Counted from the stretch's first letter, positions 2,455 through 3,217 are shown. The stretch: DNA of 5,411 nucleotides from a virus (IMGVR_UViG_2671180759_000018:1-5411), one strand, 5' to 3'. Translations and numbers: made by a program. Notes: generated from the sequence alone by a model not told the origin.

Positions 2455-2737
2455 TACCCGTGCGTTGTAACTGATTAAGGGCGTTAAGCTGGCGTCGTGC
2501 TTTCACGATACCCGCATCCGCTTTACTGACAGCGTCGCGGGCGCGCTCAAATGAACGCGCCTGACGCTCGAGATTTTTGATCGCCCCCTGCGTTCGCTGG
2601 ATGGAGTCACCAAACTGCCCCATCAGGCGGCGGGCGTTTTCGGCAGGCCGGGTCAGCCTGTCAACGGCGCTGAAAGCGACCCGGATATCAAGAGTCTTCA
2701 TTGTCTGCATTCCCGCTGCGAAGTGCCGCCCGCTCAC
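2455..2737 (-). pseudogene. T: 5' fragment of a P2-like tail tape measure gene (gpT), interrupted by the IS66-family insertion
   Basis: The ORF 2402..2737 begins inside or just after the E' extension, as T does in P2-like phages, and its N-terminus resembles tape measure proteins. After about 90 native codons it runs into the IS terminus at 2454 and terminates at 2402 on IS-encoded codons (...SKRRLSTVWQILKFLRE). The true start is ambiguous (ATGs at 2737, 2710, 2701). Confidence 0.7.
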
Positions 2738-3217
2738 GCCAGCTAACCACTTCGCCGGGCGTCATCATGAAGATTTCGGCGGGCGACCAGTTAAAAATAA
2801 CGGCAATATCTGCCACAAAGTCTTCTATGTGCTCAAAGCACACAACCGTGATCAGGCTTCCGTCGCCTGTTCGTTCTTCCCGCCAGAGTCCGCACCGCTC
2901 AAAAAATTTACGGCAACCACACATAACTGAATAAAGTCACGGGATGCCATTTTTTTGATCGTCACTTCATCCAGTCGCGGTGATGTCACGCGTGACAGCA
3001 GCGTAAACATGGATTCCGCTTTCAGATTCAGCACATCAGACAGCGACAAATCTCGCAGAGATCCAGCCTGCTCAATAGCTCCGGTGATCTCCACATACGT
3101 GATTTTTTCGCCGCCTCGCTCAATTGGTTGGGTAAGTTTTACGCCACGCTCACTGGTTTCTTTCACAGTGTCAGCAACGACCGTGTTTTCGGTATCGATG
3201 TTTTTCGTCTCTTTCAT
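2688..3217 (-). CDS. E': gpE+E' tail assembly chaperone made by programmed -1 ribosomal frameshift
   Basis: Minus-strand heptamer TTTTTTG (plus 2900..2906) lies in E. The -1 frame is open from there to a stop at 2688..2690 (track ORF 2688..2924, read from FFERCGLW onward), reproducing the P2 E/E' arrangement. Confidence 0.7.
2852..3217 (-). CDS. E: Phage tail assembly chaperone gpE (121 aa)
   Basis: Small ORF immediately downstream of the tail tube gene, with a strong SD (AAAGGAG, 7 nt spacer) and a T7G slippery heptamer near its 3' end. Position and size match P2 gpE. Confidence 0.8.
   Translation of the reverse strand: MKETKNIDTENTVVADTVKETSERGVKLTQPIERGGEKITYVEITGAIEQAGSLRDLSLSDVLNLKAESMFTLLSRVTSPRLDEVTIKKMASRDFIQLCVVAVNFLSGADSGGKNEQATEA
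2900..2906 (-). other. Slippery heptamer (T7G-type, TTTTTTG on the minus strand) for the E to E' -1 frameshift
   Basis: Read directly from the sequence: minus-strand GTA AAT TTT TTG AGC in the E frame. P2-like phages use the same T7G motif at the E/E' junction. Confidence 0.7.

Follow-up and report, generated by a model that had tools for sequence, protein, structure and literature searches.

Gene E of the tail module considered here is followed by an open reading frame, E′, in the −1 frame, and the pair sits between the tail tube gene FII and a tape-measure gene, T, that is interrupted by an insertion sequence. The question raised by this locus is whether the two frames are joined by a programmed −1 frameshift, as are E and E′ of phage P2, and what the state of such a signal says about when T was lost. 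The window, namely the whole stretch of viral DNA analysed (5,411 nucleotides; IMGVR_UViG_2671180759_000018:1-5411), is part of contig L085 (LDXB02000002.1; GCA_001039225.2), which was used for sequence lying beyond the window. An earlier note on this DNA had proposed that an E/E′ frameshift signal is conserved between positions 2688 and 3217, that it reproduces the P2 chaperone mechanism and that the disruption of T looks recent. This span corresponds exactly to E plus E′. As judged from sequence comparison, it very probably specifies two tail-assembly chaperones, homologues of gpE and gpE+E′ of P2, in a P88-like prophage (Xuanwuvirus, Peduoviridae). The features of the window are listed in Table 1.

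Table 1. Features of the 5,411-nucleotide window, with the basis of each assignment.
Feature	Position	Strand	Basis or remark
ISEc22 (IS66 family), complete, 2454 bp, GTAAGCG termini	1..2454	−	Pfam matches, termini, length
ISEc22 transposase	1576..38	−	Pfam
ISEc22 tnpB	1972..1625	−	Pfam
ISEc22 tnpA	2373..1969	−	Pfam
5′ stump of tape-measure gene T, 82 complete codons + 1 nt	2455..2701	−	Continues into the insertion sequence, stop at 2402
8-bp target duplication, one copy	2455..2462		TACCCGTG on the + strand, CACGGGTA on the gene strand
E′ extension, 70 sense codons + TGA	2688..2900	−	−1 frame translation; PF06528, PHROG 1756
Overlap of E tail (zero frame) and E′ start (−1 frame)	2852..2900	−	−1 frame with motif G-x-W-x-x-E-R-x-G-D-G
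Gene E, predicted short tail-assembly chaperone, 121 aa	2852..3217	−	ATG 3217; stop TGA 2854..2852; PHROG 103, P2 gpE
Slippery run A_AAT_TTT_TTG (AAATTTTTTG), two overlapping in-phase heptamers	2900..2909	−	Phase computed
Heptamer T_TTT_TTG, P2 type	2906..2900	−	In phase with E; + strand CAAAAAA 2900-2906
Heptamer A_AAT_TTT	2909..2903	−	In phase with E, within AAATTTTTTG
Shine-Dalgarno AAGGAG of E, 7 nt 5′ of the start codon	3225..3230	−	Sequence read directly
Tail tube gene FII, directly 5′ of E	3272..3784	−	PF04985, 7.5e-47
Tail sheath gene FI	3784..4968	−	PF04984, PF22671, PF17482
Gene D, 5′ part, divergent as in P88, cut by IS30	5126..5392	+	P88 annotation
IS30, first 19 nt (terminal inverted repeat)	5393..5411		Whole element at 6089-7309 of L085, 1221 bp; AG duplication

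Inspection of the minus strand bore out the anatomy described in the earlier note, namely a TTTTTTG heptamer inside E and an uninterrupted 71-codon extension in the −1 frame that ends at 2688 and overlaps the start of T. Across the site, E reads GTA AAT TTT TTG AGC; codon 104 ends with the first T of the heptamer (AAT TTT TTG; Asn-Phe-Leu), which places the heptamer in the canonical X_XXY_YYZ phase. Following a slip, the first codon of the −1 frame is GAG at 2900 and the last is TGA at 2690..2688, corresponding to 213 nt, i.e., 71 codons including the stop. There is thus no stop straight after the heptamer, the finding that would have counted against the proposal; the −1 frame stays open for 70 codons beyond the heptamer and for 83 codons overall (2936..2688), with the stop of E itself lying 15 codons 3′ of the slip site. 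Conceptual translation of E codons 1-106 followed by the E′ extension yields a fusion, gpE+E′, of 176 aa. The stop of E′ falls 14 nt within T, the ATG of which (2701..2699; MKTLD...) is the start annotated for T in P88 and in RefSeq genomes and prophages. A look-up of the exact truncated T protein found only the ATG-2701 start to be recorded, and not those at GTG-2737 or ATG-2710. Within the window, a single copy of the 10-mer AAATTTTTTG is present, as against 0.01 copies expected. Given that stops occur in the −1 frame of the adjoining genes at 0.058-0.082 per codon, an open run of 70 codons would arise by chance with a probability of about 1% or less.

Comparison with known protein families next speaks to identity. 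The E′ extension matches Pfam family PF06528 (Phage_P2_GpE; E = 1.7e-12; 47 bits, where the cut-off is 23) and PHROG 1756 (annotated as 'tail protein'; 6e-39), and was aligned with P2 E′ by BLASTP (5e-17); the extension is therefore not without similarity to known E′ sequences, the second finding that would have spoken against the proposal. E itself matches PHROG 103 (also 'tail protein'; 3.2e-35) and P2 gpE (BLASTP 5e-12, 32% identity). Its match to Pfam family PF10109 (Phage_TAC_7), at 17.2 bits, is under the 25-bit cut-off, and the same family is matched by 11 of 12 aligned E relatives from Escherichia to Burkholderia phages (best 1.6e-18). The alignment called for in the earlier note, namely of E and E+E′ with their P2 counterparts, showed the conceptual fusion to be colinear over its full length with P2 E+E′ as annotated (2e-25), with the frameshift junction falling in the same alignment column (VNFL|ER here, VGFL|FA in P2). 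The gene order FI-FII-E-E′-T is that of P2 and P88. At the sequence level, then, the locus presents what marks a P2-type pair: a GpE-family extension, an in-phase heptamer near the 3′ end of E, the expected position, and an E′ with neither a conserved start codon nor a ribosome-binding site. Only the direct Pfam score of E departs from this pattern. The claim that the P2 E/E′ mechanism is reproduced here is accordingly supported, as far as sequence can do so, by the PF06528 match, the P2 alignment, and the shared heptamer and phase. Searches of PDB sequences with the fusion gave no meaningful match, and searches of NCBIfam with E, E′ and the T stump gave no match. When IMG/VR was searched with the P2 fusion, only near-identical copies of P2 were recovered, with no added diversity.

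The system seen here is known biology, namely the E/E+E′ arrangement of P2 found in a related phage lineage. P2 (NC_001895), where the −1 shift takes place at T_TTT_TTG in the FETUD operon, shares with the window the order FII-E-E′-T, the heptamer, its phase and its aligned column; its E′ is likewise a member of PF06528 (with 48% identity across the 42 residues that are conserved) and also overlaps the start of T. The two differ quantitatively, however. E comprises 121 aa here, with a 22-aa N-terminal extension, as opposed to 91 aa in P2, the tail of E beyond the slip site comprises 15 codons rather than 6, E′ comprises 70 codons rather than 57, and the overlap with T is of 14 nt rather than 8 nt. 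Moreover, a second in-phase heptamer, A_AAT_TTT, abuts T_TTT_TTG in the window, whereas P2 contains T_TTT_TTG only, and D is divergent from FI here yet follows U in P2. Far closer is P88 (Xuanwuvirus P88), the tail module of which is 98.5% identical in nucleotide sequence and laid out in the same way. Closest are prophages in two complete E. coli genomes, those of strains 01_3327 and 7_33_46A, with 100% identity to all of the window that derives from phage. P88 and P88-like records contain an intact 935-aa T, in contrast to the interrupted gene found here. Elsewhere, Fels-2 and Burkholderia phage Momento are annotated with the same slippage or with a joined coding sequence, and Smp131 presents T7G at the E/E′ site. 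In lambda, gpG and gpGT are likewise encoded by two overlapping ORFs between the major tail protein and tape-measure genes, the second being reached through low-level −1 shifting at a heptamer close to where the first ends (PMC5009743). Lambda is, however, a siphovirus and its heptamer is G_GGA_AAG. The likeness considered here is one of functional analogy; in that sense, E/E′ is the functional myovirus counterpart of lambda G/GT. Frameshifting in tail-chaperone genes is reportedly conserved among long-tailed phages (Levin, 1993; Xu, Hendrix and Duda, 2004).

If expressed as in P2, most ribosomes would read E to its stop at 2852, giving the 121-aa short form predicted by homology, with a minority slipping by −1 on A_AAT_TTT_TTG (2909..2900) and continuing for 70 codons to yield the 176-aa fusion. 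The latter would end in the GpE domain, the part conserved across the family. The lambda G/GT and P2 E/E+E′ products act on the tape-measure protein (T in P2) during tail assembly. The anatomy of the sequence, its homology, the conservation of the frame, purifying selection and the insertion history are shown by the present analysis; that ribosomes shift at this site, and on which heptamer they do so, is inferred from such comparisons.

The reading frame of E′ is conserved among relatives. Of 162 related IMG/VR and reference loci, a set in which some contigs are present twice, 158 place E′ in the −1 frame with respect to E. Over that part of E′ outside the overlap with E, comparison with five diverged relatives gave dN/dS values of 0.10-0.18 (at dS of up to about 2), indicating that the E′ extension is under purifying selection. 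The exceptions look decayed or odd: E′ of L005 is interrupted by a stop, L007 gave only a partial match to E, and L143 presents the conserved part of E′ in the frame of E, after the E stop. Decayed or odd, too, are L018 and L108, which yielded matches that are 1 nt shorter and in which the E′ frame is broken. L005, L018, L108 and L143 could be pseudogenes or sequencing errors.

The earlier note had also suggested looking for a frameshift-stimulating structure downstream of the heptamer; none was found. The 50 and 90 nt downstream fold no better than do shuffled sequences (z +0.68 and −0.94, respectively), nor do the 81 nt spanning the slip site (z +0.27). A consensus fold computed for eight clade representatives reached only −1.7 kcal/mol and contained no conserved structure, while scanning the whole window against Rfam at E<=1 returned no match, frameshift elements included. 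Inspection of the sequence 5′ of the slip site likewise revealed no obvious Shine-Dalgarno-like stimulator. The elements that define the dnaX and IS3-IS911 sites, namely a stem-loop or pseudoknot 5-9 nt 3′ of the heptamer, an upstream element resembling a Shine-Dalgarno sequence, or both, are hence not seen, and the E/E′ site is not in the structure-stimulated dnaX / IS3 class. Their absence would fit a shift of low efficiency for which the heptamer alone is responsible. Without a stimulatory RNA structure, the long form would be expected at a low, fixed ratio to the short one, as in other phage chaperone pairs; given that no stimulators were found, the efficiency could be very low. A 9-bp GC-rich hairpin (3239-3259, minus strand; no U-run), which folds no better than shuffled sequences do (z −0.75), lies between the FII stop and the ribosome-binding site of E, at a place equivalent to that of an annotated terminator in a Mannheimia relative. 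The divergent region between FI and D contains no P2-type late promoter dyad (TGT-N12-ACA), and scans for sigma-70 promoters and terminators remained at background level.

Other readings of the same DNA were weighed. E′ is handled in the databases as a small gene with its own start: P88 records and PGAP present it as a free-standing 51-aa 'tail protein' or 'GpE family' ORF from GTG 2843, while Prodigal calls a 78-aa ORF from ATG 2924, a codon that does lie in the −1 frame. Were E′ so initiated, no frameshift would be called for. Yet, ATG 2924 is replaced by GTG in the L116 clade and by no start codon at all in the L144 clade, and inspection of the sequence 5′ of ATG 2924 revealed no Shine-Dalgarno motif. 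As to GTG 2843, alignments across clades show the −1 peptide (G-x-W-x-x-E-R-x-G-D-G) to be conserved from the slip site on, that is, already 5′ of the start chosen by PGAP. Since ATG 2924 is not conserved and the peptide is conserved from upstream of GTG 2843, independent initiation of E′ is very unlikely, and the alignment of the fusion with P2 E+E′ across the junction also argues against it. In the account in PMC3931495 that summarises Christie et al. (2002), P2 E′ is described as being without a ribosome-binding site, as overlapping T and as being reached by a −1 shift at T6G.

Nor does the run of six Ts, at which RNA polymerase could add one U such that no ribosomal shift would be needed, offer a persuasive alternative, even if the transcriptional and ribosomal routes would lead to nearly the same protein. 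Efficient transcriptional slippage in bacteria generally needs longer runs, and the P2 E/E′ event was reportedly described as translational. Sister clades, moreover, read AAATTTTATG and CCCTTTCTTG at this point, with T runs of only 4 and 3 and with in-phase ribosomal heptamers kept. Such a pattern is predicted by selection on tRNA re-pairing and not by selection on a slippery template, so that transcriptional slippage is considered very unlikely. Least credible of all is that the heptamer and open −1 frame are a coincidence or a dead relic with no functional bearing. The module is indeed defective in this genome (T::ISEc22, D::IS30), meaning that the signal is without present use, yet chance is excluded by the homology (1.7e-12), phase, position and conservation, and prophages in which T and D are intact have exactly this sequence (100% identity). 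A chance ORF, independent initiation and transcriptional slippage were thus rejected on the homology, the unconserved ATG and the short T runs of relatives, respectively, leaving ribosomal −1 frameshifting as the preferred reading.

The slip site varies among relatives. Counted as loci and not as independent events, 105 read as does the window (AAATTTTTTG) and contain both A_AAT_TTT and T_TTT_TTG, 28 (a 79%-identical sister clade together with L112, which lies inside the P88 clade) read AAT TTT ATG and contain A_AAT_TTT only, and 21 (another clade) read CCT TTC TTG and contain only C_CCT_TTC, at the same position. P2, Fels-2, SEN4, Kp4874-2, Pseudomonas phage PaeM-D14A and the IMG/VR loci L141 and L142 contain only T_TTT_TTG or T_TTT_TTA, phiT5282H contains both C_CCT_TTT and T_TTT_TTG, and Mannheimia phage 1127AP1 contains G_GGA_AAG, annotated as a slippery site. 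L248, reading CCT TTT TTG, also contains two heptamers. Accordingly, the heptamers seen at the E/E′ site across clades of the Peduoviridae are T_TTT_TTG/A, A_AAT_TTT, C_CCT_TTC/T and G_GGA_AAG. Every clade examined thus presents an in-phase slippery heptamer at this position, with its sequence being variable, and the E/E′ protein junction stays put in all heptamer variants (the L116 clade, L112, the L144 clade and L248).

The 28 AAT TTT ATG loci, in which T_TTT_TTG is destroyed, A_AAT_TTT is kept and E′ is still open and conserved, indicate that, conserved though the predicted frameshift is, the exact T_TTT_TTG heptamer is not indispensable. They raise the possibility that the operative site is A_AAU_UUU (2909..2903), one codon 5′ of the heptamer pointed out earlier, or that both are used. 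The 21 loci with only C_CCT_TTC, at the position of A_AAT_TTT, point in the same direction. In E. coli, UUY codons in the A-site support shifting better than does UUG, with R_RR.U_UU.Y being notably shift-prone (Sharma et al., 2014; PMC4066793), which renders A_AAU_UUU credible and possibly the main site. Against this stand P2, Fels-2, SEN4, Kp4874-2, PaeM-D14A, L141 and L142, all with T_TTT_TTG or T_TTT_TTA only, the annotation of T_TTT_TTG as the site in P2, and the presence of both heptamers in the window itself. On balance, use of A_AAU_UUU in the P88-like lineage, alone or together with U_UUU_UUG, is offered tentatively, as a suggestion that we would sooner doubt than assume. Equally provisional is the broader proposal that the Peduoviridae site turns over among neighbouring heptamers (A_AAU_UUU, C_CCU_UUC/U, U_UUU_UUG/A, G_GGA_AAG) around a fixed junction; if this is true, the window would represent a two-site intermediate. 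The two sites predict products differing in a single residue, namely VNF-F-ERC for A_AAU_UUU and VNF-L-ERC for U_UUU_UUG, and the tryptic peptide expected to span the junction would be DFIQLCVVAVNFFER in the former case and DFIQLCVVAVNFLER in the latter.

The frameshift is missing from the annotation of the P88-like phages examined. No such annotation appears in the P88 GenBank record, in the RefSeq copy of P88 or in four PGAP-annotated E. coli genomes, and the P88-like records examined omit the 176-aa fusion, an annotation gap. To the mechanism of recoding the present analysis adds nothing new, save that the slip heptamer differs among close relatives. What is mildly new is this turnover of the heptamer, the frameshift unannotated in P88-like records and the two-step insertion history of the module.

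As regards that history, ISEc22 is complete: its termini are GTAAGCG, it contains three ORFs and it is flanked by an 8-bp target duplication, as expected of a simple insertion by an IS66-family element. The second copy of the duplication is found at the far side of ISEc22 in L085, and the duplication is perfect. In-silico removal of ISEc22 and one of the duplicates restores a T of 935 aa with 0 mismatches to WP_000853448.1; similarly, removal of IS30 and one AG from D gives an ORF of 367 aa. Once freed of ISEc22, L085 differs, over a 10,957-bp prophage segment surrounding the tail module, by 1 base from E. coli strain 7_33_46A, where D is interrupted by IS30 and T is intact, and by 2 bases from strain 01_3327, which carries neither insertion. 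The IS30 element is annotated likewise in the sister strains 7_33_46A and 90-9280. No T::ISEc22 junction was encountered among the complete E. coli genomes in the collection, and an exact search of species-representative genomes for the T/IS junction returned 0 matches.

Since a sister strain has D::IS30 and an intact T, the module had most likely lost its function before the insertion into T, which makes T most likely the second insertion target and not the first. The most parsimonious order is from an intact module to D::IS30 to T::ISEc22, with essentially no point divergence. On this order, IS30 would have entered D and ISEc22 would later have entered T, leaving the chaperone without an intact client protein; in the present genome, the chaperone is presumably useless. 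The earlier conclusion that T was disrupted recently is correct, given the perfect 8-bp duplication, the restoration of T with 0 mismatches, the single difference in 10,957 bp and the 100% identity of ISEc22 to other copies. The argument by which that conclusion had been reached, namely that an intact 7-nt signal and an open frame imply recency, is weak by itself. The heptamer and both frames survive intact owing to the very recent date at which the prophage was disabled. Taken together, the intact signal and the insertion history date the death of the prophage as very recent, and the near-identical strains provide a clean three-step series (intact, D::IS30, D::IS30 plus T::ISEc22).

Several further observations concern the insertion sequences and the surroundings of the module. 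The start of the window coincides exactly with one end of ISEc22. With 100% identity, this copy matches annotated ISEc22 in E. coli, including many copies on chromosomes and plasmids, and some E. coli genomes contain more than 20 places matching the element. Of 5426 complete E. coli genomes, 256 contain the identical D::IS30 junction, among them that of an O157:H7 strain. It also occurs in a diverged P88-like prophage (97.6% identity) that lies by tRNA-Leu/Cys/Gly, as opposed to the pheT-ihfA flank that the prophage adjoins in L085. Such recurrence reflects either a hot spot for IS30 or an old insertion spread by recombination. Outside the window, the prophage in L085 contains as cargo a serine acetyltransferase gene (15928-16500) between U and the tail-fibre assembly gene, as well as a radical-SAM cluster of the His-Xaa-Ser type (hxsD, B, C, A; 1688-5085) between ogr and D.
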